Below the pieces are notes generated by a model, which did not search any database, had not been told where the DNA came from, and worked only from the letters and a program-made list of their open reading frames with translations. A stretch of DNA of 20,000 nucleotides from Catajapyx aquilonaris (Eukaryota). Positions 1 through 18,864 of this stretch are shown in pieces. Position numbers and translations under genes: made by a program. The DNA lies in NCBI GenBank assembly GCA_000934665.2, contig KZ538860.1, forward strand, positions 54,968 to 74,967, in the 5' to 3' direction. Each line of letters begins with the position of its first letter. Positions within the stretch are counted from its first letter, which is position 1.

Positions 1-798
1 TTGAAGAGACACATACTTACCCACGCAGGAGTTAAGCCATTCCGTTGTGAAATGTGCCAGAAAAGGTTTGGATGCGATTCCGCTTTAAAGACGCACATGA
101 TTACTCACACGGGAGTGAAACCATTTGCTTGCGACTATTGCCAGAAAGGATTTGCATTTGCGTCAACTTTGAGGGCACACATGGTCACTCACACAGAAGA
201 GAAGCCGTTTGTTTGCGACGTCTGCCAGAAAAGGTTTGCATTGGAATCTTACCTGAAGGCGCACATGGTTACTCACACGGGAGAGAAGCCCTTTGCCTGC
301 AGCGTGTGCCAGAGAAGGTTCGCATTGGCATCTTACCTGACGCGTCACATGGTCGTTCACTCTGAAGAGAAGCCACTTGATTGTGAAGTGTGCCAGGAAA
401 CCTTTTCGTCTGCGTACACTTTGAAAGAACACATGGACACCCACGCATTGAAACCATTCGCTTGCCCCGTCTGTCAGAAAAGGTTTAGTAGCGCGTCTAA
501 TATGAAGCAGCACATGGCCACCCACTCGGAATGGAAGGAATTTGCTTGCAACCTGTGCCAGAAGAGGTACGCATTGGCATCTGACCTGAAGCGCCACATG
601 AAGACTCACTCGGAGAAGCCATTTGATTGCCCAGTGTGCAAGAGAAGCTTCGCGTTTGAACATGCCTTGAAGAAGCACATGGAGACCCACACAGGGGAGA
701 AGGAGTTTGCCTGCAGCTTGTGCCAGAAGAGGTACACCCTGCTGTCGTCCTTGAGGAGGCACACAGCCACTCACACAGGAAATGCTAGCAATAGCTGA
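1..798 (+). CDS. C2H2 zinc-finger protein ZF-A, 3' part of terminal exon (5' end outside window); 9 complete fingers plus 1 partial
   Basis: Open frame of tandem CxxC-x12-HxxxH repeats with TGEKPF/TGVKPF/TEEKPF linkers; stop TGA 796-798; AATAAA at 987-992. Confidence 0.93.
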   Translation: MKRHILTHAGVKPFRCEMCQKRFGCDSALKTHMITHTGVKPFACDYCQKGFAFASTLRAHMVTHTEEKPFVCDVCQKRFALESYLKAHMVTHTGEKPFACSVCQRRFALASYLTRHMVVHSEEKPLDCEVCQETFSSAYTLKEHMDTHALKPFACPVCQKRFSSASNMKQHMATHSEWKEFACNLCQKRYALASDLKRHMKTHSEKPFDCPVCKRSFAFEHALKKHMETHTGEKEFACSLCQKRYTLLSSLRRHTATHTGNASNS

Positions 799-986
799 AT
801 GGAAACTTGCTCTTGATGACCTGCCGCCTAGTCACCAACCGGTACTTTATTCAGTGGATATTATTATTGGGAGTAGTTGTTCCCTGTTCCGGACAGGCCG
901 TTGTATTTGGGAGTCATGTATTGTGCGTATACATGTGTAAATGCAGTATGTGGTTATGTACAAGACGTTTGTGAATTTTATGAATG

Positions 987-992
987 AATAAA
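987..992 (+). terminator. Polyadenylation signal of ZF-A
   Basis: AATAAA about 190 nt after the ZF-A stop, followed by a T-rich tract and immediately before the next promoter cassette. Confidence 0.6.
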
Positions 993-1029
993 TGAAATTA
1001 TTATTATTTGAACGAAAGAGCGTCTTAAA

Positions 1030-1151
1030 TAGCCGCTACTCATCAGGATCTGGATAGCGCATAAGCACATCCCTTTTCAAAGCGTTGATCGGAATGCACC
1101 CGACTCCAAAAAAACAAAAAAAAAAATGAAGAATGTTTTCCAAGATGGCGG
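1030..1151 (+). promoter_or_regulatory. Conserved promoter cassette, copy 1
   Basis: TAGCCGCTAC 1030-1039 (motif A reversed, degenerate), ATAGCGCATAAGC 1054-1066, GGAATGCACCC 1091-1101, CCAAGATGGCGG 1140-1151 (YY1/Pho-type consensus); same order as the other copies; about 105 nt upstream of ATG 1256. Confidence 0.75.
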
Positions 1152-1255
1152 ACGATCCTTTCCGTTAGCGCGTCACTCTTTCTCTTCATTTCGACCCGTT
1201 TCTTCGCCCACCTTCGCGTCTAGAGGGAGAATCGCCTTCCATACACTTGCACGGT

Positions 1256-2562
1256 ATGTCACTGATTGAAAGGATCAAGGAGGAGGAAGACTATGGCGAT
1301 GAAGAAGAAGTCGCGATGGAAGAGCTGTGGAAGGAGCCGTTGATAGAAGAAGCCCCTTCTTGCTCTGATCATGAAGCCACGACACCCATCAAAGGGGAAC
1401 CAGCTGAGGAGGAGGAGGAGGAGGAGGAGATGGAATACAATGTTACGGCCAAGGTGACTGAAGATGACCCATTGGCAGTTGGTTCTGCAGGCAACGGAGA
1501 GGTACGTTAGCGTCAGGAATTGCGAAACAACTTCCCTGGACTCAGTCTTCCGTAAAGACTAGCTTGTGTTTGAAAAATTAGATGGAAAAAAAAGGGATTC
1601 TAATGGTGCAATAAATGTACTGAAATTGTAAATCCAGATGGTCAGCCAGGAAAAGTCTGTAGAAAGCCAATCGTGTGTGACTTTCTCTTCAGAGCAAGAC
1701 TGGTGGTGCACCAGCAGGAAGATCTTCCATGTCGTTACGCCGTGGTAGCATCAATAGAAAACCACAGAGGAAGAGAAGCAAAAAGTTGTCAGTGAAGCAG
1801 CAAATGGCGAGAAACAAAGAGACACATCCTGTGAAGCCTGGCTGTACCTGCAAAAACAAGTGCGCAGACAAAATAACGGAGGAGAGGAGAGAGGCCATCA
1901 ACAGTGAGTTCTGGGCCTTGGACCACTGCGGACGGCAGGTGTTCATCCACGGTTCCATCACCAAGATTCCCAAGAAGCAAAGCACCACGGTTGGATTCAG
2001 CTGTCGCTCCTACAGTTTCTTTTACCATATGAGAGACCAGTACAACAATTCCTTTCGAGTGTGCAAGGCTTTTTATCTCACAACACTTGGCTTCGCCCAG
2101 AATAATGACACTGTTGTGCGGAACGTGATGCGTGTGTGCGACGGTCCGTTGTTTTTCCCTCAGCAGGATGGGAGGGGAAGGGCTCCTTCCCCATACAAGA
2201 TCGATACCACCTCCATTGAAGAGCACATCAAGTCTTACGTTCCTGGTCTATCCCAGAGGAGACGGGACAACGGGACAAATTCATCAGGTGACGTGACATT
2301 TTCTGCAATGGTGAAAGACTACAATTCCAAGCACAAGGAACGGCCCGTCTCCTACAGCATATACTGCAGGGTAGCCAAGACCATGAACATTTCAATTACA
2401 TCTGGCGGAAAAATTAGTGCTCCTAATAAACGAGTACCAAATTGCCAATATTTACAGCCTTCTCTTAATCCTGTGCAATTATCACTAAGGCTCCCGTTGG
2501 AATGCACCCAACATGGACCACAAACGGCTTCTCCTCTGCATGAGTTGCCAGGTGCCTTTTGA
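1256..2562 (+). CDS. Two-exon gene (1256-1501, 1693-2562; 371 aa): acidic family leader exon fused to a Sola-like transposase N-terminal region, no catalytic domain
   Basis: Exon 1 MSLIERIKEEE...IKGEP...EDDPLAVGSAGNGE ends at GAG|gtacgt (phase 0). Acceptor ctttctcttcag|AGC at 1693 is in frame with ORF 1729-2562. Exon 2 carries CTCKNKC..RREAINSEFW..FI..Y..RVCKAFYLTTLG..DGRG..IEEHIKSY..VSYSIY..MNISI, a motif series I recall from Sola1-type transposase N-termini. Confidence 0.72.
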
Positions 2563-3106
2563 AATGAGATGCCCAGGCAAACCGTTTCTGACAAAAAGTG
2601 CAAATGAATGGCTGATACGACCTATGAATCTCCGTGTGTTTTTTTCAATTTAGATTCCAGTGCAAATGTTTTCTGGCAAAATTCACATGTCAGTGGCTTT
2701 TCTTTTGTATGAGTCAAAACGTGCGATTTCATAGTATCTGGCCTTGCAAACCTTTTGTGACACGCACTGCAAGCAAATGGCTTCTTCTCCTCTGCATGCC
2801 TGGCCATGTGCATTTTCAAAGAGTATCTCTGCGCAAACCTTTTCTGGCACAATTGACAAGAAAATGCTGCCTTCACTCCCGTGTGGGTCACCCAAGTGTT
2901 TTTTTCAAAGTAGACGCCAAAGCAAACTCTCTCTGACACACGCTACATGCTAATGGTTTTTCTCCCGTGTGAGTCATCAAATGCGTCTTCAAACCAAAGG
3001 GCCGACTAAACTTCTTATTGCACTGATGACAAGTCTTCTCTCTTTCGACTGTCCTGATATTTGGCTCCTTCCTCCTTTCAATGATTCCATCCGCTTCTTG
3101 GTCAAC
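2465..3106 (-). pseudogene. Frameshifted, truncated C2H2 ZF pseudogene (about 6 fingers) lacking the acidic first coding exon
   Basis: Acceptor cttgcag|GTT GAC CAA GAA (VDQE, compare VAQE in paralogs) at 3106. Fingers are split over three frames, with extra bases at 2899-2905 (T7), 2891-2893 (C3) and 2639-2645 (T7). The array stops abruptly after KPF at about 2521; the corrected frame ends at TAA 2467-2465. Finger sequences resemble ZF-A (FALAS/FALES). Confidence 0.75.
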
Positions 3107-3283
3107 CTGCAAGATTAATTTATCAGTACAGTGATACAATTTTTAGGACTGAAAAGCCTGTTTCGTTCCATTTGCTCTCCATTACACAATGTAGTGTCAA
3201 TAATAATAATAATAAGATCAATAATAAGAGAGAGAGAGAGAGATGAAAGTACACTTCAAGAGGTGGTTACAAGCAATATCGGG

Positions 3284-3373
3284 CGGCCATCTTGGATTGC
3301 ATTTTTTTTTGCGGGTGCGTTCCGATGGCCACCTTTCGCTGGGGGGGAATGGCGGACGGGCTTATGCGCTATT
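3284..3373 (-). promoter_or_regulatory. Conserved promoter cassette, copy 2 (minus strand; divergent to the MADF gene)
   Basis: Reverse complements of CCAAGATGGCCG (3284-3295), GGAACGCACCC (3313-3323) and AATAGCGCATAAGCCC (3358-3373), in the correct order for minus-strand transcription toward the ZF pseudogene. Confidence 0.8.
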
Positions 3374-3529
3374 AATGGGGGAACAGCAGCGATTGCACGA
3401 CGATCCCAATAATACCGATCGAATCGATCGTATCAGAAGAAGAAGAAGCCCGTGTCCGTCCGTCTCTCTCTCTCTCTCTCTCTCCTTCCTTCTGGTGGTC
3501 CATTGTCCACCAGAGCAGCTACAGGCAGG

Positions 3530-5030
3530 ATGGCCCCTCCAAGAACTAAGAAGGAGGCTGCGAAACTGCGCGCGCGGGAGAGGATGCGGCAGGCGGCGGA
3601 GTGGAAAGGGAGGCTTCTGGCGGAGGTGCAGGCCCGGCCGGCCATCTGGGACAAGGGGGGCGGAGGACGAGATCGGGAGGCGGTCGAGGCCATGTGGGAC
3701 CAAGTGGTCGAGGCCATGGGCTCCATGGACAGTAGGTGTCTTCTTCCCTCTGTCTAAAGCACTTGAAACACTTACAATGAGACTAATAATTGCCCAATTC
3801 TGTCTAAATACAATGTCAGAGGCCGAATGCAAAACCGCATGGAGGAACCTAGTGGACATCCACAGGAAAGTCCACCAGCAAGTGAGCAGAGAGAAGAAGA
3901 GTGGGCAGGGATACGTGGCTCCCCCAAAGTGGCAGTATTATGATGCCATGTCGTTCCTGCGAGGTCGCGCAGAAAACAGGGTGTGAGTATATCACTATAT
4001 ACCGTTATGTCATGGGTGCCCAATGCGCAATTGTTCGCAATAGCATTGCAAATAGTTTATCGAGTCAATTTTCCGCAGTTGTGATACATCAATATTTCGC
4101 GAGCTTGGAAAAATTTCTAAACTCTGGAATTCATTCCTCCAATAATGGAGTCGTGATAATTTTGTGGCTCAGTTGCATTGCAATTAATATAAGTGTTCCT
4201 CATGCCTCATTCAAGGGAAGAACTCGTGACTATAGCCAACATCGACTGGGGACATACTGAAGAACCAGACATGTACGCCGACGACTCCCTGACAGCCGAT
4301 GACTCCCTGACAGCCGACGACCCCCTGGCAGCCGACGACCCCCTGGCAGCCGACGATCCTTTGTCACCCCACATACATGACATTGCATCCCGTTCTTCCA
4401 CTCCCACTGCATCCCTTTCTTCCACACCCACCATACCGCTTTCCCCAAGCGCAACACAGACTCCCCACAGCATTGAACCTCAAAAGAAGAAGAAGAAGAG
4501 GATGGAGGAAATTGCCAAGACCTCTGCATCACAAAAGTCGGGCCTGCCAACGTCTGCATCGACAACTTCTCTACTGCCGATGTCTACGCCAGTGGATGAC
4601 GCGATGATTAGAACATTGCAGGATATTCGTGCGTATGTAAAATTAAAAGCTTCGGTATCCCCCAATTACGTAAAGTAACATACGAACTGGGACGTCATTA
4701 CAAGCCATTATTTTGTCCAATTGCCAGTCGTGCTGCAATCTTGCATCCAAAACAGATGGCAGTCCATTGTAATTTTTTCTGATGCTGTGAAAGTCATTGT
4801 GAATGTGACAATGCTAAAAGAAGCCATAATCTGTTTTAACCTATACTGAGTCATCACAACAATTAATGTTCCCTTTCAGGCGACTAAGTGAGGAGCCGTC
4901 CGACTTCAGCAGACTGTCACAGTACCTCGAGGGCCATTACACTAAATGGTCTGCCAGCAGCAAGGAGGCATTCGAGCATGCCGTTGTCAGATTAGCCTGG
5001 GACATCCACAAGGCTGACGGCGGAAAATAA
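3530..5030 (+). CDS. MADF (Myb/SANT-like) domain protein with a C-terminal BESS-like motif; 4 exons 3530-3731, 3820-3982, 4216-4632, 4880-5030 (310 aa)
   Basis: MADF signature LLAEVQARPAIWD...WDQVVEAM...ECKTAWRNLVD...KSG...KWQYYDAMSFL. Phase-consistent introns: A|gtaggt..tcag|AG (phase 1), GT|gtgagt..caag|G (phase 2), GC|gtatgt..ttcag|G (phase 2). Exon sum 933 nt = 311 codons. Last exon RLSEEPSDFSRLSQYLEGHYTKWSASSKEAFEHAVVRLAWDI resembles BESS; NLS-like KKKKKR. Confidence 0.85.
4277..4366 (+). repeat. Coding minisatellite, 5 x 18 bp (ADDSLT/ADDPLA)
   Basis: Units GCCGAYGACYCCCTGRCA start at 4277, 4295, 4313, 4331 and 4349 (last one diverged), in frame in MADF exon 3. Confidence 0.9.
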
Positions 5031-5457
5031 AATGTCCAGATTCAAAAAACTGACTCGCAAGTATTTCATTATTTACAATATGCAGTTGAATCTCCTTAAT
5101 CTCAACTCTACGTAAATAGTAACAAAATGCCAATAAGGTCAAGTCCCACACGAAGGAATATGGTGGATGGCTGTCAATTATAATTATGGAAGTTTCATTT
5201 TGTCCTGTGATGCACATGGCCCCACGTGACCACAACCTGTTCAAGTATAACGACAATTAATTGTTTGCAGCAGGAAACTTATTCCAGGAATGTCCAGTCA
5301 ATGTCCTGAAGGTCAGTGTTAAAGCGCAGAGTATTCTAATGCTCGTGGTTACTTCCAACGCTGAATTTGTCGGTATGAGTTGTTTGCACTAATTAATAAA
5401 AAGAGAAGCACAAGTTAATTGAGCCAATTGAGCTGGAGGTGAGCTTCCCCCTGACAA

Positions 5458-5699: not shown

Positions 5700-8421
5700 A
5701 TGTCCTCTTCTTCTGAACTGGTGGTCAAGGAGGAGGTGGAGGGGGAAGAACAGGCCGTCACTTCGGAGGCATGGAAGGTGGCTGTCAAGCAGGAGGCCAC
5801 CGCGTTCTACTCTGATGATTGCCAAGACGCGTCGTCGTCGACAGCTGCAGGGGACGGCGGCGGGATTAAAGAGGAGCCGGACGAGGAGGAGGAGGAAGAG
5901 ATGGTGGCTGCAGTGGCAGCAGGAGGGGATGCCGAAGAAGCGGTCGACCCTTTATCCACGGTTGGACGGACTGGCCAGGTATGAAGGATGATGAGTTGAA
6001 TGGCCTGATCAACATGCACTGCTCCCGTCAACAACAAACATCCCCAATTCTCAAGTTCCCACGGAGATGCCCTCAGGCAACAAGAACTAGCATGCCCGCA
6101 GGAGCTACTCCATTCGCATTGAGTACCGGCCACACAATCCAATGCCTTTCTTTTTTGCCCATATCCCATGGCCAGAAATCTCACGTATTCATTGACCCAG
6201 GCGTGATTGCTCAGCTCACATGAGTTTGTGTCATAATATATTATGCTGCAGTTTGTCCAGGAAAAGGCTACATGGGATTTCAGGGAATTTTGAAGTACTG
6301 CAGCGTTGGCAGATGCATATTGAACCCAACATAGGACACATTCAAATCAAAATATTCCACATAGCATCCATTCATTTTTTTTTAGAGCAAACATAGGGGA
6401 CAAGGTGGGGGTGGAGCAGGCAGAAATTTAGGGGAAAAAAACCATGTGGCCATGCATTATTTTCCTGAGCTGACTCCATCTGCACTCATCATTTTACACA
6501 TCCCATAGGAATCAATTCTGTGCACATATTAACTCGACCAATTGAGGCATGTGATTGGCCACCTCAGATGAGGCAATGAAAATTTCGCCAATTATTACTA
6601 CATAATGGATCATAGGGCCAGTTTTCAGCATGGAGGCTATTTAATTCTTGCATATCCACTACAACACTAGTACACTACAGGGAAATGCCAGGTTGCTTGC
6701 TGGTACAGTAGTAGCAATCTAAATATTTATGACCTCCTACCCTTACAGTTCCTTCAGATCTTTTCTCGTGATGCATATGTGCAAGCAGAAAAAAAATTAT
6801 CTCTCACCCACCATGTAATTTTAGACTTTTTCTCATCGAAGACAAGTCTGGCATAACTGCCCGTCCGTCCATCTGCGGACAGGTTATCAGGGCCTAAACC
6901 GCTGGAGATAGCGACAAATTGTTGTCGGATTCAGATTTGGCAGACCCTGAATAGGTATCAGGGTCAACTTCTGGTTTTCCGGGTACACTCGATCCCCCAA
7001 GATCAACTCTATACTGTATAGGTGGGGTGTCCTGAGGATCCTTGGCAACATGGAATAGATTGCTCTCAGCCTAATTTCAGGAGTATTATCAGTACTACAA
7101 CACTGCCAAATGAGAAAAAGTTCACTGGAATCATGCTCGCGGCTATGGCAAGATGGATTTTACGATCCTGAATACAAGACTAACGTACATGCTTGACTTT
7201 ACAATGTTGCAAGATATTTCTTGGTTGTTATGAAAGAATACTGAATCATGCAGCCATGGTAAACCACCTACTCCCCTCATCTCCAGGTTCGACATGTTAA
7301 TGGGGACAGTTAATTCAGAGCTACCTCGTCATGCTCTAAACAGTTGTGATAATCTTGCGCTTTCCCACACTTTCTGTCCTGCTATCCCTCGTTCCCCAAC
7401 TGCAAAATATTGCTCGATACCACCCATTTAAACCATTTCCATCTTACAGGTGGCCCAAGAAAAACATGTTGCGAGCATGGAGGAAGACATTCAGACGGAA
7501 AGTCAAATGCCGAGAAGTGAGGGAGAAAATCAGGGATACAGGAAGACTTGCTCGGGAGAGGAGCCACTCGCTTGTCCATTGTGCCAAGAGAAGTTTAGTC
7601 TAGGACATGAATTTAGAAGGCACATGTTAAGTCACCCCAAGGAGAAGCCTTTCATTTGCCAGATATGCCAAGAGGGTTTCTGTCTGGAAGCCCAGCTGTT
7701 GGGCCACTTGTCAAGTCACCCTCCTAACGAGACGCCTTTTGTTTGCCAGATATGCCAAAAGGGTTTCTATGGAGAAGCCCAGCTCTCAGCCCACACGAGA
7801 GCTCATTCAATAGAAAAGCAATATGTTTGTCAAGTGTGCCAGAAGAAATTCCCTTGGCCATCTGACTTGAAAAAACACTTGGTAACGCACACGGAAGAGA
7901 AGCCTTTTGATTGCAAAGTGTGTCAAAAAAAGTTTAGTAGGGCATCTGATCTGAAGAAACACCTAGTGATTCACACAGAAGATAAGCCTTTTGATTGCCA
8001 AGTGTGCCAAAAATCTTTTTATAGGGCGTCTGATTTGAAGAAGCACTTAGTGTCTCACACAGGAGAGACCCCATATTTCTGTCACGTATGCCAGAAAAAT
8101 TTCAGGAGTTCATCTAGTTTGGCCAACCACCTAAAAATCCACACGGGGGAGAAGCCGTACTGTTGTGACACCTGCCAGAAAAGATTTAGCCAGTCCAATG
8201 ATTTGAAAGTACACAAGAGGATTCACACTGGGGAAAAACCATTCGCATGCACAGTGTGCCCGATGAAATTCCGCCAGGCACGTCATTTGAAAGTCCACAT
8301 GTGGACTCACACCGGAGAGAGACCAATTGCATGCACGCTATGCCAGAAGGCATTTCGCCAGGAATGTCATTTGAGAGACCACATGAAGAGGGCTCACACT
8401 GAAGAGAAGACACGTGCCTGA
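5700..8421 (+). CDS. C2H2 zinc-finger protein ZF-B; exons 5700-5978 and 7450-8421 (416 aa, acidic leader plus 10 fingers)
   Basis: Exon 1 MSSSSELVVKEE...IKEEP...AVDPLSTVGRTGQ|gtatga (phase 0); acceptor ttccatcttacag|GTG GCC CAA GAA; 10 intact C2H2 fingers; stop TGA 8419-8421. Confidence 0.88.
6635..7240. mobile_element. About 600-bp intronic insertion in ZF-B relative to ZF-C, possibly a non-autonomous element remnant
   Basis: The flanks (GGCCAGTTTT.AGCA at about 6616; TGAATCAT..ACCACCT at about 7242) are only about 30 bp apart in the ZF-C intron (12742-12797). The insert contains CGTCCGTCCATCTG...AAACCGCTGGAGATAG (about 6862-6911), reminiscent of DINE-1/Helentron-associated elements. Boundaries are approximate. 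Confidence 0.4.
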
Positions 8422-9543: not shown

Positions 9544-10605
9544 TTAGTACTCGACTCCAAAGTCTCTGAAGTTTTTGAACAGGATGTTCAACTCGAGATG
9601 CACTGTTCCCATGGACTGCGTTTGCAGCCGGTACCGGTCCACTCCAGTGTAGACCAACTCGGGGGATCTCAGTTCAGGTCCTCCTCCGAGAAAGAACTGC
9701 GTGATCCTGTCCCGGGTGGAGCTGATTGGTCGCCAGGTCTGCACCTCGATTTGATGGGGTCCAGGTGTGCATGGGATGTAGCAACAGCCGTATGCGTAGA
9801 TCTCGCTGCGCCCAAACGCGTCTAGATGGTACACTTCCACGTGTATCTTCGGCCAACCTACGAGCAAAATCCGGCTTTGAAAATCATTACGTAACATTAT
9901 TGAAGAAAGAGTTTGTTTCTTTAATGTTATAGTAATGTTTATGAAACACTACTCTGCAACATTACTAAATGAATGCCCCTTGCACAGGATGGCCCTAAAT
10001 GCCTAAAGTCTGGACACGTAGGCATACGTAATTTTGTATTGCATTGTATTGCTAGTTGACAGTAACTGGCAACCAACAATGCAACATGTGCCCAGGCGTT
10101 AAGGCCACCCTGTGTCAATGGGAATGTGAGGAACAGTGGTAGGTGGACTTATGTTGTAACTACACACCTTTGATACCTTTGGTGCCATAATGTATGTCAA
10201 TAGGGTGGCTCCAGCAGGATAGGTTGTCATGAAGGGGGCAGTCTACTTGTGTTTGTCCTTCAACCTCACCTTCCAGAACCGACCATGCGTCTCCTAATAA
10301 AATAATTATAGTATCAGGAGCACAAGTACAGTTTAAAAAAATTACATGCATAATACAGGCTGTAATAGGAGAGCGAGAGTGATTCATCAGTCATGGATAC
10401 ACATACAAAACTAATGCCTATCCCATATTATATGTCAAATGAAATCAATGTTGGTGCATAGCAGTGTAATTGGTTATTTGTTTACTGAATGAAGTGCCAA
10501 TAAGTGTTGGGTCATACCTGCGCCACAGTAAAACTTGCAGAAGATGTTTCGGCCTGGAAAGGACTTGCCTCCGACTATCTCTCCGATTACGTGAACTTCA
10601 GCCAT
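9544..10605 (-). CDS. B9D2: B9 domain-containing protein 2 (ciliary transition-zone MKS module); exons 10605-10518, 10293-10168, 9857-9544 (175 aa)
   Basis: Spliced translation MAEVHVIGEIVGGKSFPGRNIFCKFYCGAG-DAWSVLEGEVEGQTQVDCP...[39 protein letters not shown]...FFLGGGPEL...NFRDFGVEY matches the B9D2 family as I recall it; two phase-1 GT-AG introns; 88+126+314 = 528 nt. Confidence 0.95.
9983..10114. mobile_element. 132-bp fold-back (MITE-like) element in B9D2 intron 2
   Basis: Left end CACAGGATGGCCCTAAATGCCT..GGACACGT resembles the reverse complement of the right end, CACAGGGTGGCCTTAACGCCTGGGCACATGT. Inner arms TTGCATTGT (10039-10047)/ACAATGCAA (10076-10084) and TTGCTAGTT (10049-10057)/AACTGGCAA (10064-10072). 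Confidence 0.6.
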
Positions 10606-11379: not shown

Positions 11380-13933
11380 ATGTCGTCGTCAGCACTGGTG
11401 GTCAAGGAAGAGGGGGAAGAGGGTGAGGAAGAGGGCGTGACTGCGGACACATGGAAAGTGGCATTGAAGCAGGAAGTCACCGTCTTCTCTGATGACGACA
11501 ACTCGACATCTCTAGAGGACGGGATTCATGGATTTGAACCAGTGGATGAGGAGGAGGAGGAGGAGGAGGAAGAGATGGTGGTGGCAGTGGCAGGAGGGGA
11601 TGCTGAAGATGCTGTCGACCCATTATCAGTTGGTTCAGAAAGGACTGGCAAGGTATGAACTAGATATGAGTTCACTGAAAGGTCGAATCGAGTATACTGC
11701 CATTGATCCCAGCAGCTTCTGTGCTAGTGAGAACCACTTTGCCAAGACAAAAAAAAAAAAGGAACAATACTAATTGAAACATTTCAGTTGTTGGTGGCAC
11801 GCATGGAAATTGGAACAACATGTTATCTCTGGCAATGGCAGTGCAAGGCGAATCTCCTAATAGGTGCTCAATGCCAGGGGTGCTCTTCCTGCAATGTATA
11901 TGCAGATCAGCCTGTCTTACACTCTCGCAGCTAGTTTGGACAAATTTAGCCAGAAATTAGACTGAGCATAGTCAATGTGGAATATTGCCTCGGTGCGTAC
12001 TCTGGGAAGTTGTTTCCCTAGTTTTGAAGTCGATAGCACCAAATTCGGCAGGGGACAGTACATGACAGCTGGTCATTACACTTTACCACATTCCTTTAAT
12101 ATCTTTCTATCAATTGTTGGAAGTTTGTTTGTGTGCTAAGTTTGTTCACAATAAAAATCCAGGGGAATGAATGTCCACCACTATTAACTAGCATACTAGG
12201 GGTCACATGTAGGAGTAATTTAATGACATCTGTGTAATGTTGGAGTTACTGAAAATGAACCTAGCTCGCACAATGCGCATAATTCCTCTCAGTGCTGCCC
12301 TCCATTTACATGGGTACAGCCCGGAGCATAAAGTTGCAGACGGCAGGTCCTCCCCTTCGGCAGGCTGCTCTGCCAATCCCCGCCATTACGGTATCAAACA
12401 GACGGTTATAAATACACCAACACATGCCTGAAGCAGCTCAATCAGCCCAAAAAGAGGCAATTAATTTGAGTCGAATAAAGGAAGGCCAGAGAAGGCCTGG
12501 CAGCGTCTCCAACTTTATGCTCGGGGCTGTACATCCATTTACATCTTTTTCCTGCCACCCATCATTTCGCTGCATCATGATTTTTTTTGCTTACATATCC
12601 AATCAAGGAGCACACATTCCATGTACTCACCAACTACACTAACCGAGGCGTGACTGGCCACCTCGCATGAGTTCCTATTGCATAGTAGGCCCGGCTGCAT
12701 GGTATTCCATAAAATTCTGAAGTCGACTCAATGGCCCGTAAGGCCAGTTTTAAGCACATCGAGTATATGGATGGAGTTTAGTGAATCATACCACCTTCTC
12801 GCCTCGTCTCCAGGTTCGACAAGTTATTGGACAGTGAGTTCAAAGCTAGCTCATTCTTGAAACAGTTGTGATATTATTGCTTTCCCACATGCCCTGACCT
12901 GCTGTGCTTCCTTCCCCAGTTGTAAAATATTGCTCGGTAACACTCATTCACCATTTCTGTCTTTCAGGTGGCCCAAGAAAAACATTATGTTGCACGCATG
13001 CAGGAGGAGACCCAGAAGAAATGTCGAAGGTCCAGATGTGAGGATAAGAATCAGGAGAAGGAGAAGACTAGCTCAGGAAAGGAGCCACTCGCCTGTCCAT
13101 TTTGTCAAAAGACGTTTAATCTGGTATATATATTTAGAAGGCACATGTTAACTCACCGCAAAGAAGACCATTTTGTTTGCTGGATATGCCAGAAGGGTTT
13201 CTCTCAGGAAATTCAGCTGAAGGGCCACATGAGAGCTCATTCAACAGATATGAATCATGTTTGTCCAGTGTGCAAAAAGAGGTATAACAAAGCATGTGAT
13301 TTGAAAAAACACTCGGAAGCTCACGCTGAAGTGACCCCCAGTCATGTATGCCATGTGTGCCAGAAAGAATTCAAAAATGTGTCTAATTTTAACAATCACA
13401 TGAAAATCCACGCAGCGCAGAGGCTATATTATTGTGGCACTTGCCATAAGAAATTCAGACATACGGCTCACTTGAAAAATCACATGAAAATCCACACTGG
13501 GCAGGCGGTACCGGAACATTGTTGTGACACTTGCCAGAAAAGATTCAGCAATTCATATGCTCTGAAAGTACACAAGAGTGTTCATACTGGAGAAAAGCCA
13601 TTTGCATGCACAGTGTGCCAGAAAACATTTAGCCAGGCACGTCATTGGAGTGCCCACGTAAAGAGGGCTCACATTGGTAAAGGGTCAAGCGTCTGTGAAG
13701 CAAGTGAGAGGAAGTTCGAATCGGAAGAACCCGAGGTAACTGATGCAGGCGAGAATACACACTGTTGCCAATTTTGCCAGAGACTATTTAGCCATTCAAT
13801 TGATTTGACAGTCCACATGCGAACTCATATTGGGGAGGAATCATTTGCATGCACCGAGTGCAATGAAGAATTTCGGGAGTTGCCACATTTGAAACTGCAC
13901 ATGAATACTCACACTCCAGATTCCAGTCACTGA
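11380..13933 (+). CDS. C2H2 zinc-finger protein ZF-C; exons 11380-11652 and 12968-13933 (412 aa; 9 intact fingers plus 1 degenerate)
   Basis: Exon 1 MSSSALVVKEE...LKQE...AVDPLSVGSERTGK|gtatga (phase 0); acceptor ttctgtctttcag|GTG GCC CAA GAA; degenerate finger CEASERKF lacks the second Cys and both His; stop TGA 13931-13933. Confidence 0.88.
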
Positions 13934-14562: not shown

Positions 14563-14722
14563 GTAGCAGTTACGGAAGGAGTAGCAGCGACGGAGGGCTG
14601 CCCGCGGCCAACAGCGCTTAGTCCCCTCCATCCATTGGCACGGGTGGGAGCGGCCGTCGGAACGCACCCCCTCTCTTTTTGTCATAAACAAAACAACAGC
14701 AACGCTGAGCCCAAGATGGCCG
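14563..14722 (+). promoter_or_regulatory. Conserved promoter cassette, copy 5
   Basis: GTAGCAGTTAC at 14563 and GTAGCAGCGAC at 14581, GGCCAACAGCGCTTAG 14606-14621, GGAACGCACCCC 14659-14670, CCAAGATGGCCG 14711-14722; ATG at 14908. Confidence 0.8.

Positions 14723-14755: not shown

Positions 14756-14823
<68 letters not shown>
14756..14823. repeat. (TAT)n microsatellite, about 22 units, inside the putative 5'UTR intron of ZF-D
   Basis: Perfect trinucleotide run starting in the donor ACAG|GTATTA at 14755. Confidence 0.95.
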
Positions 14824-14824
<1 letters not shown>

Positions 14825-14907
14825 ACTGGCTGAATTCTTCTCAATGCTCGCAGGCGAACCTAACGAAACTGGATTTTCATGTTCATGGATGGTGTTTTCC
14901 CAGGACA

Positions 14908-16808
14908 ATGTCATCAGCGCTGGCAATCAAGGAGGAGGAGGAGGTGAAGAGGGAAGAGGAGGAAGAAGGGGCTGTCACTGTGGAAGAAACATGGCAGTTG
15001 GCAGTCATGCAGGTACCTACATTCTTTTATGTGATGTCGACACCACCTGCAGGGGACGGCGGGATTAAAGAGGAGCCGGTGGACGAGGAGGAGGAGGAAG
15101 AGATGGTGGCAACGGCGGCAGGAGGGGATGCCGGAAATGCGGTCGACCCATTATCAATTGGTGCAGAAAGGATGACTGGTGAGGTATGCAAAATGAGTTT
15201 ACTGAAATGCCAGATCAAGATGCATGGCAGTGCATCCCGCCAAGTCCATGCAACTTCCACTGATCCAGACTACACATCTCTTGCTGCCGTGCATCCTTTA
15301 CTGGAGCTCACTCGCTCTCCCTCTACATTTCGGCATTTTCTAGTTCGGCACAGGGAAACGCTGGAAGGCTGAAATTTTAATACGACGATGGGGGCACACC
15401 CGGGGACCATACAAATAAATTGTCGGGAAATTTGGACCACTAGGTTCACGCCAGGAGAGGGCCCAAATTGGCTTGGTTTTTGTCTGATTCATATACAGGG
15501 TGTAAATGAATTCAGGGGACCATTTCACAAAAATAATAATAATAATAATAATAAATCGCGCGGCAAACGGCGCGTTGGGCATATTTGTCGCGGGGCATAT
15601 TATTGCCAATAATTAATAATAATTGGCGGGGCACGCGTTTGCCGCTTGACGCTGCCGCAAAATCTTTTTGTGCTTCGGCCTTAACTTGTAGGGGCAATAG
15701 AGGGGACCAATACAAGTATTTTTGACATTGGAACCCGTGTCCGGAAACGCCATCTGGAGGGGGTTCAGAGACGAGGAACGGGTGCGCTCAGACGCGTCAG
15801 GCAGACGGCGTTAGCGAGGGGACCGTTTTGTTGCTAGGTGGCACGCAGATTGTACACAACTTTGCAATTCGCCATAACCTGGCAACAACAGAGTTGCTGT
15901 TTATTATCTGCATGCTACCTAGCATGCTGACTTTAGTTGCTAGGTGGCTCTGTTGTTGCCACGTTTGGGCACATCCCGTCATTGGTTACTGTCCGAGTGC
16001 CACCTAGCAACTAAACGGTCCCAACAAAAACAGAGATTTCTGCTTTCACTGTGCCTGTAATGCGCACTGCTATGTTCTGATTAATGACATCCATCAAAAA
16101 TGAAATATTAGCTCCCTGAAAATTATGCAAGACCAAAATATACGAAATTTCCAGGTGGCCCAAGGAAAACCTGTTGCAAGCATCCAGGAGGAGAACAAGA
16201 TGAAAGGTCAAAGGTCCACCACATGTCAGGATAAGTATCAGGAATACAAGAAGACTCGCTCAGGAAAGGGGCCACTCGCCTGCCCATTTTGTCAGAAGAA
16301 GTTTAATCTGATATACGATTTCAGGAGGCACATGCTAACTCACCGCAAAGAAGAGCATTTTGTGTGCTGGATATGCCAGAAGGGTTTCTCTCAGGAAATT
16401 CAGCTGAAGGGCCACATGAGAGTTCATTCAATAGAAAATGTATGCCATATATGTCAGAAAAAATTCATATGCTCGTCTAATTTGAAACGTCACATGAAGA
16501 GCCACACAGGGCAGGTGAAGTCATATTGTTGTGACACTTGCCAGAAAAATTTTAGCAGGCCATATGCTTTGAAATTGCACAAGAGGACTCATACTGGAGA
16601 AAAGCCATTTGCATGCGCAGTGTGCCAGAAAACATTTAGCCAATCATATGATTTGACAGTCCACATGCGAACTCATATTGGGGAGGAATCATTTGCATGC
16701 ACCGAGTGCCATGAAGAATTTCGGGAGTTGCCCCATTTGAAACTGCACATGAATACTCACACTCCAGATTCCAGTCAGTCACTGAAGCTGCTTAATAAGG
16801 GGGAATGA
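14908..16808 (+). CDS. C2H2 zinc-finger protein ZF-D; exons 14908-15183 and 16155-16808 (309 aa; 6 fingers)
   Basis: Exon 1 MSSALAIKEEE...IKEEP...AVDPLSIGAERMTGE|gtatgc (phase 0); acceptor aatttccag|GTG GCC CAA GGA; 6 fingers; stop TGA 16806-16808; close paralog of ZF-C. Confidence 0.86.
15683..15827 (+). repeat. Interspersed repeat fragment (copy 1), related to 19250-19394
   Basis: Shared blocks AACTTGTAGGGG..TAGAGGGGACCAA..ACGCCATCT.GAGGGGGTTCA.AGAC..CAGGC.GACGGCGTTAGC; a TA|CAGGGTGT end-like motif lies upstream at 15494-15503. Confidence 0.7.
15819..16022. mobile_element. 204-bp nested fold-back element (MITE-like) with 26-bp inverted ends
   Basis: GGGACCGTTTTGTTGCTAGGTGGCAC (15819-15844) matches the reverse complement of 15997-16022 at 25/26 positions; inner perfect 14-bp inverted repeat 15880-15893/15948-15961; central GCATGCTA-CC-TAGCATGC 15910-15927. 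No clear target-site duplication. Confidence 0.75.
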
Positions 16809-18546: not shown

Positions 18547-18864
18547 ATGTCATTGCTGCTGGTCAAGGAGGAGGAGGAGGAAGGAGGAGATGAGATGGCC
18601 ACGACTCAGGAGGAGGAGGAGACCTGCTGGACGACGGTGCTGAAGGAAGAGGTCCCCATGTCGTTTGAGGAAGGTCCATCTCTACCAGTCCCCACATCCT
18701 TCGTGGACAGCCCAGTGGTGCTGAAGGAAGAGGTGATTCACGCGGTCAAAGCTGAACCAGTACAAGAAGAAGAGGAAGAGATGATGGCAATTTCTCCAGA
18801 GATGCCGTGTCAAGACGATGCGGTAAATGACCCATTGGCAGTTGTTTCTGGAAGCAGACATGAG
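18547..18864 (+). CDS. First coding exon (106 aa acidic leader) of another family member; the downstream exon probably lies beyond the window
   Basis: MSLLLVKEEE...CWTTVLKEE...VKAEP.EEEEEMM...VNDPLAVVSGSRHE|gtaatt, with a phase-0 donor as in paralogs; acceptor ttcatttacag| 5 nt before the ATG; no ZF exon found in 18865-20000. Confidence 0.78.

Follow-up and report, generated by a model that had tools for sequence, protein, structure and literature searches.

A gene of Catajapyx aquilonaris that joins an acidic zinc-finger-family exon to a truncated Sola1 transposase N-terminal region

The fusion of host genes with transposases is a documented source of new transcription factors in tetrapods, where the described cases include KRABINER, SETMAR and PGBD3-CSB (Cosby et al., bioRxiv 10.1101/2020.05.07.082677). 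In the model outlined in the text of that preprint, the transposase occupies an exon of its own, a splice acceptor lies just upstream of its open reading frame (ORF), and mostly the DNA-binding part is kept. Here, a gene of this kind is described from Catajapyx aquilonaris, within a window of 20,000 nucleotides (nt) that corresponds to positions 54,968-74,967 of the forward strand of contig KZ538860.1 (assembly GCA_000934665.2); all coordinates below are those of the window. The gene (1256-2562, plus strand) is a host-transposase fusion, in which splicing links an acidic first exon, in frame, to a single truncated Sola1 N-terminal region of about 230 residues.

The two exons are separated by an intron of 191 nt (1502-1692, plus strand) with GT and AG ends. 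In run X5, one contig connects 1499 with 1691 or, equally, 1501 with 1693 (the cut being shifted by 2 nt), with 62 letters on the exon 1 side, 282 letters on the exon 2 side and 0 mismatches; such a joint is found in 0 contigs of run X1. X1 is the probable source run and consists of DNA, and X5 comes from the same organism, from a different sample and a different study. We infer that X5 was derived from RNA because four GT..AG joints are present in it and absent from X1, namely the joint at 1501/1693 and three skips in the neighboring plus-strand gene (3731/3820, 3982/4216 and 4632/4880). Over the fusion gene, X5 contigs cover 1147-1382, 1440-1501 joined to 1691-1972, and 1947-2407; none is aligned on 2408-2832, which is uninformative either way on the end of the transcript. 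Both sides of the 1501/1693 joint are in phase 0, with the transposase-derived exon in one frame with the host exon. An earlier note, made from the letters of this DNA, had proposed exactly such a chimera, with its acceptor at 1693 joined to 1501, and had named RNA reads across this junction as one of the checks to be made; the X5 contig spans it. A chimeric RNA of the acidic exon and the Sola1 region is made, the RNA nature of X5 being deduced from its joints.

The junction has been observed once, in one contig of one run, and this might suggest an artefact of assembly or mapping, or the transcript of an autonomous Sola1 element, the more so as that run has no library type on record. Such an origin is extremely unlikely. 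The joint is canonical and in frame, and its contig has no letter that departs from the window. Moreover, the three additional X5 joints of the neighboring gene are likewise canonical and missing from the DNA run, and neither a catalytic core nor terminal inverted repeats (TIRs) nor upstream transposase sequence accompany exon 2.

The host half of the fusion belongs to a non-transposon family, since it shares its first exon and promoter motif with four neighboring C2H2 genes. Genes of this type are arranged in tandem across the window, each with an acidic-peptide first coding exon and with its fingers in the last exon. The coding part of exon 1 (1256-1501, plus strand) specifies an acidic peptide of 82 residues, which is paralogous to the first exons of the neighbors and ends with the phase-0 donor GAG/GTACGT; a phase-0 GT donor closes five of the five acidic first exons. 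The peptide is 37-48% identical to those encoded at 5700-5978, 11380-11652, 14908-15183 and 18547-18864, and 16 columns are invariant across the five peptides, including the initial M, KEE, W, EP, a Glu run and DPL. When 800-3400 was compared with the rest of the window by blastn, similarity to exon 1 was confined to 1388-1435 and 1464-1493, and the intron and exon 2 had no nucleotide similarity at all. For the 82-residue peptide, 0 Pfam families were found at E<=1, and KRAB or another described zinc-finger effector model was not matched. Upstream of exon 1, the shared promoter motif CAAGATGGCGGAC occupies 1141-1153 (plus strand), and an X5 contig begins inside it, at 1147. A motif search of the window with CAAGATGGCNGMC found six sites, as compared with 0.21 expected, a number reached in 0 of 200 shuffles. 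Five of them are on the plus strand (1141, 5582, 11147, 14712 and 18305), all upstream of an acidic first exon, and one (3282) is on the minus strand. The promoter cassette and acidic phase-0 exon that the earlier note had regarded as common to this gene and its C2H2 neighbors are thus borne out.

Exon 2 (1693-2562, plus strand) is an open frame of 289 codons followed by a TGA stop. It was described earlier as uninterrupted and without C2H2 fingers, and a Pfam search agrees, with no C2H2 domain and no family at E<=0.1 (the best, DUF7768, has E 0.11, under the cut-off). An exhaustive HMMER search with exon 2 returned 1477 proteins at E<=1e-3, including 369 at E<=1e-10 and 18 at E<=1e-30, with a best E of 1.6e-62. 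These matches span residues ~15-240 of the exon (nt ~1735-2412) and end almost always at 237-241. When ten relatives were compared with the window by tblastn, homology was found at 1669/1729-2412 alone, with E from 1e-21 to 7e-40, the remaining matches having E>0.2. Word-indexed protein searches ('near' and 'longer' lengths) gave no match with exon 2, and a sequence search of the PDB gave 0 matches at E<=10. In the ESM Atlas, exon 2 is placed among eukaryotic clusters without a name, and the nearest named cluster (score 0.82) has DUF7869 in 11% of its members.

The region of homology to Sola1 transposases (1729-2412, plus strand) contains, in order, a basic stretch, CxCxxxC, a W, VCKAFYLTTLG, DGRG and HIKSY, and ends with MNIS. 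The transposase-like motif order recognized earlier at 1825-2397 lies within this region. Throughout these 684 nt there is no stop and no frameshift, and all insertions and deletions are in frame. The transposase may once have started with the in-frame ATG at 1729. The acceptor at 1692 is 36 nt upstream of this codon, and translation from the ATG would produce an N-terminus similar in length to those of short relatives, P0017 among them.

The assignment to Sola1 was approached through the full-length relatives, which are ~600-780 amino acids (aa) long. A Pfam scan was made of 36 relatives, picked mainly by a length of at least 600 aa from the 150 matches listed. DUF7869 was found in 27 of the 36, ~200 residues downstream of the part that resembles exon 2 (in 23 with at least the cut-off score of 26 bits), and the other nine had no family; a literature search for DUF7869 found the name in no paper. 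An alignment of 13 full-length relatives revealed an N-terminal order of a basic stretch, CxCxxxC, W, VCKxFFLTTLG, DxRG, HIxSFxPxISHYRREHAPxxxYLPSD, NISFxKLGxEECxxC and a second CxxC, which is followed by three conserved Asp motifs (SxDLQKVxxLPR, WxDNCxxQNKNW and GHTFMSADSFH). An ITLKYFEPGH block is also present in full-length relatives and is comparable with the end of the Sola1 profile. That profile, the RNase_H_Sola1 hidden Markov model (124 nodes, 57 sequences), was published by Muszewska et al. 2017 (PMC5751038, supplement) and derives from alignments by Majorek et al. In the parts of the profile compared, its consensus reads D-L-Q-K-V-l-x-L-P-R, D-N-C-a-g-Q-N-K-N and I-x-L-K-F-L-E-P-G-H-S, and the motifs of the relatives agree with it; the comparison was made by eye at nodes 1-30 and 82-124 (73 of 124) of the Sola1 profile alone, and carries no computed score. 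The searched part of the supplements of Majorek et al. 2014 yielded no useful match for Sola names or for the family motifs. In addition, the full-length relative P0073 was modeled (mean predicted local distance difference test, pLDDT, of 78) and compared with known structures. Its residues ~345-520 align to the cores of retroviral integrase, Mos1, SETMAR and Sleeping Beauty with Z of 8.5-10.4 and a root-mean-square deviation of 2.4-3.3 Å, and a Foldseek search with it had a best E of 1.4e-3. Both the profile letters and the P0073 model indicate that the relatives are Sola1-type transposases of the DDD class, with an RNase H fold. The agreement of their catalytic motifs with the RNase_H_Sola1 consensus supports the Sola1 label, which had first been given to exon 2 from its motif order.

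The window copy retains only the first part of this architecture. In the alignment with the 13 full-length relatives it breaks off at MNIS (residue 234, nt ~2394-2412), directly before the ExCxxC/CxxC motifs and the three Asp motifs. No remnant of the Sola1 catalytic domain or of its DDD triad was found anywhere in the 20-kb window by tblastn with the ten relatives. Sola elements, reportedly described originally by Bao and co-workers in 2009, are said to have TIRs and a 4-bp target-site duplication. No TIRs were found around 1693-2412; no inverted repeat brackets exon 2, and the inverted pairs that were found are two promoter cassettes facing each other. The truncation before the CxxC motifs and catalytic core, as well as the want of TIRs, had both been anticipated from the letters.

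The conservation of what remains is uneven. Among 125 relatives, 55 columns are conserved at 75% or more (alignment columns 681-1026), and exon 2 keeps 38 of them. Nine of the 17 lost columns sit in the 11-column motif SHYRREHAPxxxYLP. Outside this motif 36 of 44 conserved columns are kept, as compared with 2 of 11 inside (Fisher p 1.5e-4), and five of the eight changes outside are conservative. The degenerate motif, SHYRREHAPxxxYLPSD in its longer form, corresponds to residues 188-199 (2254-2289, plus strand). An AlphaFold2 (AF2) model of exon 2 has a mean pLDDT of 80, with values >90 for 161 of 289 residues, mainly at residues ~30-180 and 200-240; the values are lower at the degenerate motif and <50 at 247-286. 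A wide structure comparison (VIA) placed winged-helix-type domains on residues ~160-249, with a best Z of 6.0, under the trust line of Z 8, and Foldseek against the PDB returned nothing at E<=1e-3 for the exon 2 model. DNA binding by the Sola1 region is thus weakly suggested by the predicted fold.

Some relatives have also parted with the catalytic domain, and they bear on the origin of exon 2. The top HMMER matches include proteins with two to five copies of the N-domain, separated by low-complexity linkers. P0003, P0005, P0006, P0007, P0009 and P0010, for example, have tandem Sola1 N-domains with no catalytic motifs and no SHYRREHAP; the source name of P0003 is 'uncharacterized protein LOC101856214 [Aplysia californica]'. 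A regular-expression search of the 150 relatives listed (P0003-P0152) found at least two N-domain cores in 17 of them. Thirteen of these lack the SHYxR motif, and 12 are also without Asp motifs two and three. Since both SHY and catalytic motifs are missing from 12 of the 17 multi-N-domain relatives, loss of SHY appears to go with loss of transposition. P0003 and similar multi-domain proteins may represent independent domestications of the N-domain.

The existence of such catalytic-less proteins, their shared loss of SHYRREHAP and their place at the top of the match list could suggest that exon 2 descends from an old host family of Sola1 N-domains and was not captured locally from a transposon. 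This origin is very improbable in view of a domain tree (FastTree) of 171 domain copies, which were selected from 202 hits as covering at least 70% of the profile. The 37 copies from proteins with several N-domains and neither catalytic nor SHY motifs require just five label changes in this tree. Exon 2 lies outside this group, and its nearest rows (P0121, P0039, P0016 and P0017) are single-domain, transposase-type sequences that keep SHY. The high rank of the multi-domain proteins, on the other hand, comes from the summing of several domain copies per protein. Although exon 2 is in no well-supported clade, it is read as an independent capture from a transposon, which would share its motif loss with other catalytic-less descendants.

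The 3' end of the fusion gene is less orderly, and it is here that the main competitor of a functional gene finds its basis. The last 50 codons (2413-2562, plus strand) form a C-terminal tail that is not homologous to Sola1 and is predicted to be disordered (pLDDT <50 at residues 247-286). From 2465 onward, and including the stop codon at 2560-2562, the tail overlaps, in antisense, the coding part of a C2H2 zinc-finger gene that converges on it from the minus strand (2465-3109). Because the tail is non-Sola1, predicted to be disordered and largely antisense to a decayed zinc-finger gene, the C-terminus of the fusion ORF looks accidental. The minus-strand gene is probably a pseudogene: the frame of its exon-2-like region is broken twice (in-frame stops at 2888-2890 and 2622-2624), and it lacks an acidic exon. 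Pfam identified zf-C2H2 on 2625-2942 (minus strand), and nucleotide similarity to the finger exons, in antisense, spans 2520-3032 (blastn). Its promoter motif, CAAGATGGCNGMC, is located at 3282-3294 (minus strand), inverted with respect to the site at 1141 (inverted pairs I3 and I4). Both frame breaks adjoin A/T homopolymer runs, and an X5 contig covers 3110-3342. An 18-nt inverted match between 1265-1282 and 3065-3082 was considered as a minus-strand acidic exon and rejected, as it falls in the finger-exon linker of that gene. The sole AATAAA in 2200-3400 on the plus strand is at 2425-2430, 130 nt upstream of the stop codon of the fusion.

According to the competing explanation, the gene is a transcribed but functionless chimera. 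Its Sola1 part would be a dead and truncated remnant downstream of an acidic exon left orphaned where the cluster is decaying; splicing would include it for no other reason than that an acceptor is available, the RNA would yield no useful protein, and the recent date of the event would account for the open frame. This is a serious possibility, somewhat short of an even chance. It accords with the convergent pseudogene, with the accidental antisense tail and with the position of AATAAA before the stop codon, and also with the destruction of the strongest family motif and the long terminal branch of exon 2. Against it stands the absence of any stop or frameshift in 684 nt, although no copy at least 90% alike to exon 2 was seen in X1, a weak hint in which depth is not to be taken as a copy number (the X1 bins over most of exon 2 have the depth of one bridging contig only, 201-3434, with no differences). 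Furthermore, the losses are gathered in one motif and not spread evenly, and the fold is predicted with high confidence. An open frame over the whole homology, in-frame insertions and deletions, losses concentrated in one motif and a confident AF2 fold make up the pattern expected of a retained module.

Several observations nevertheless weigh against a functional fusion. The splice is supported by a single contig of one run, for which no library type is recorded. The best matches of exon 2 in the protein library are 31-42% identical to it, with none above 42%, and the cognate element is not among them. The loss of SHYRREHAP, the best-conserved motif of the family, could be plain decay, and the structural support for DNA binding stays below the trust line. 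By FastTree only, the end branch of exon 2 is 1.1 long (the median being 0.49), a length equally compatible with relaxed constraint and with a new function. In addition, use of the AATAAA would give an mRNA with no stop codon, and the C-terminus looks accidental. On balance, the chances that the fusion acts as a functional regulator appear to be even, and domestication of exon 2 under selection is a candidate suggested by its pattern of conservation, not a proven case.

A plausible history of the fusion gene can be proposed. A Sola1 element would have inserted downstream of an acidic exon and been captured by way of an acceptor 36 nt upstream of its probable ATG (1729), in the manner of the vertebrate KRAB-transposase fusions. 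A later rearrangement may have cut the element at ~2412 and brought the zinc-finger pseudogene into its inverted position downstream. The encoded protein would be located in the nucleus, with the folded N-terminal module of Sola1 as its targeting part in place of a zinc-finger array and with the acidic exon as the source of its family's effector function. Its likely targets might be Sola1-derived sequences or new sites, binding as such being pure conjecture. In a bolder and rather unlikely form of this proposal, the acidic first exon would be the invertebrate counterpart of KRAB, marking a gene family that routinely recruits transposon DNA-binding modules; the fusion would be a functional regulator that recognizes Sola1-derived DNA via CxCxxxC and a winged-helix-like domain, and this module would have been domesticated independently in multi-domain proteins of a mollusc and other animals. 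If so, the fusion might silence the Sola1 family or draw the scattered copies of this family into a regulatory network, and the Sola1 N-module would be a DNA-binding domain undescribed so far.

Other features of the window were also recorded. Upstream of the fusion, 1-798 (plus strand) is the last exon of a C2H2 gene; an X5 contig on this exon (199-951) has 4 differences from the window and 255 unlike letters at its left end, and may represent a paralogue or another allele. Downstream, 3531-5031 (plus strand) is a four-exon gene, and X5 has a GT..AG joint for each of its three introns (3731/3820, 3982/4216 and 4632/4880). The start of this gene may resemble a MADF-type domain; Pfam found no family when given its first exon alone. 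The segment 3282-3372 is an apparent bidirectional promoter region of this gene and of the minus-strand pseudogene. A summed X1 depth of ~11241, versus ~30 elsewhere, was noted at 3187-3363, where AAT and AG simple repeats draw many contigs; a short AAT/ATT run is present at 3193-3227. A longer (TAT)n microsatellite lies at ~14756-14830 (plus strand), between the promoter motif at 14712, which it directly follows, and the acidic exon at 14908. Between two zinc-finger genes, 9547-9948 (minus strand) is an exon with a B9-C2 domain (ciliary basal-body B9 protein, Pfam E 2.8e-35).

The Catajapyx gene shares several features with the tetrapod KRAB-transposase fusions as they are presented in the preprint of Cosby et al. 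In both, a separate exon holds the transposase part and is spliced to host exons, the acceptor is just upstream of the transposase ORF, and mainly a non-catalytic part of DNA-binding type is kept. In both, moreover, the host partner is an effector exon of a zinc-finger gene family. On the other hand, the host exon here encodes an acidic peptide that belongs to no Pfam family, whereas the KRAB fusions have KRAB. The donor is also different: it is Sola1 here, and 'Sola' has 0 occurrences in the main text of the preprint. A parental zinc-finger isoform, unlike in tetrapod fusions, is impossible at this locus because there is no plus-strand finger exon before the next gene. Finally, in contrast to the tetrapod fusions, the window gene is known from its sequence and from X5 contigs, and its function is a candidate only.

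The comparison may be extended to the transposons themselves and to their other descendants. Like Sola1 transposons, the window gene has an N-terminal region that is homologous to relatives with the catalytic motifs of the Sola1 profile; unlike them, it has no catalytic core, CxxC motifs or TIRs, its SHYRREHAP is degenerate, and it is served by a host promoter and a host exon. With the tandem N-domain proteins, such as P0003, it has in common an N-domain kept without catalytic core or SHYRREHAP. These proteins differ from it in having several copies with low-complexity linkers, no acidic first exon of the family seen here, and separate clades in the domain tree. Host-transposase fusions that are non-vertebrate, derived from Sola1 or equipped with a non-KRAB effector are scarce, and the Sola1 superfamily has been little studied. 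The present locus offers a fusion junction in an RNA-like contig. It also delimits a part of the Sola1 transposase that is predicted to fold alone and that survives without the catalytic core, and it singles out SHYRREHAPxxxYLPSD as a motif that may be dispensable once transposition is lost. The gene is a host-transposase fusion that is built from Sola1 and an acidic exon other than KRAB.

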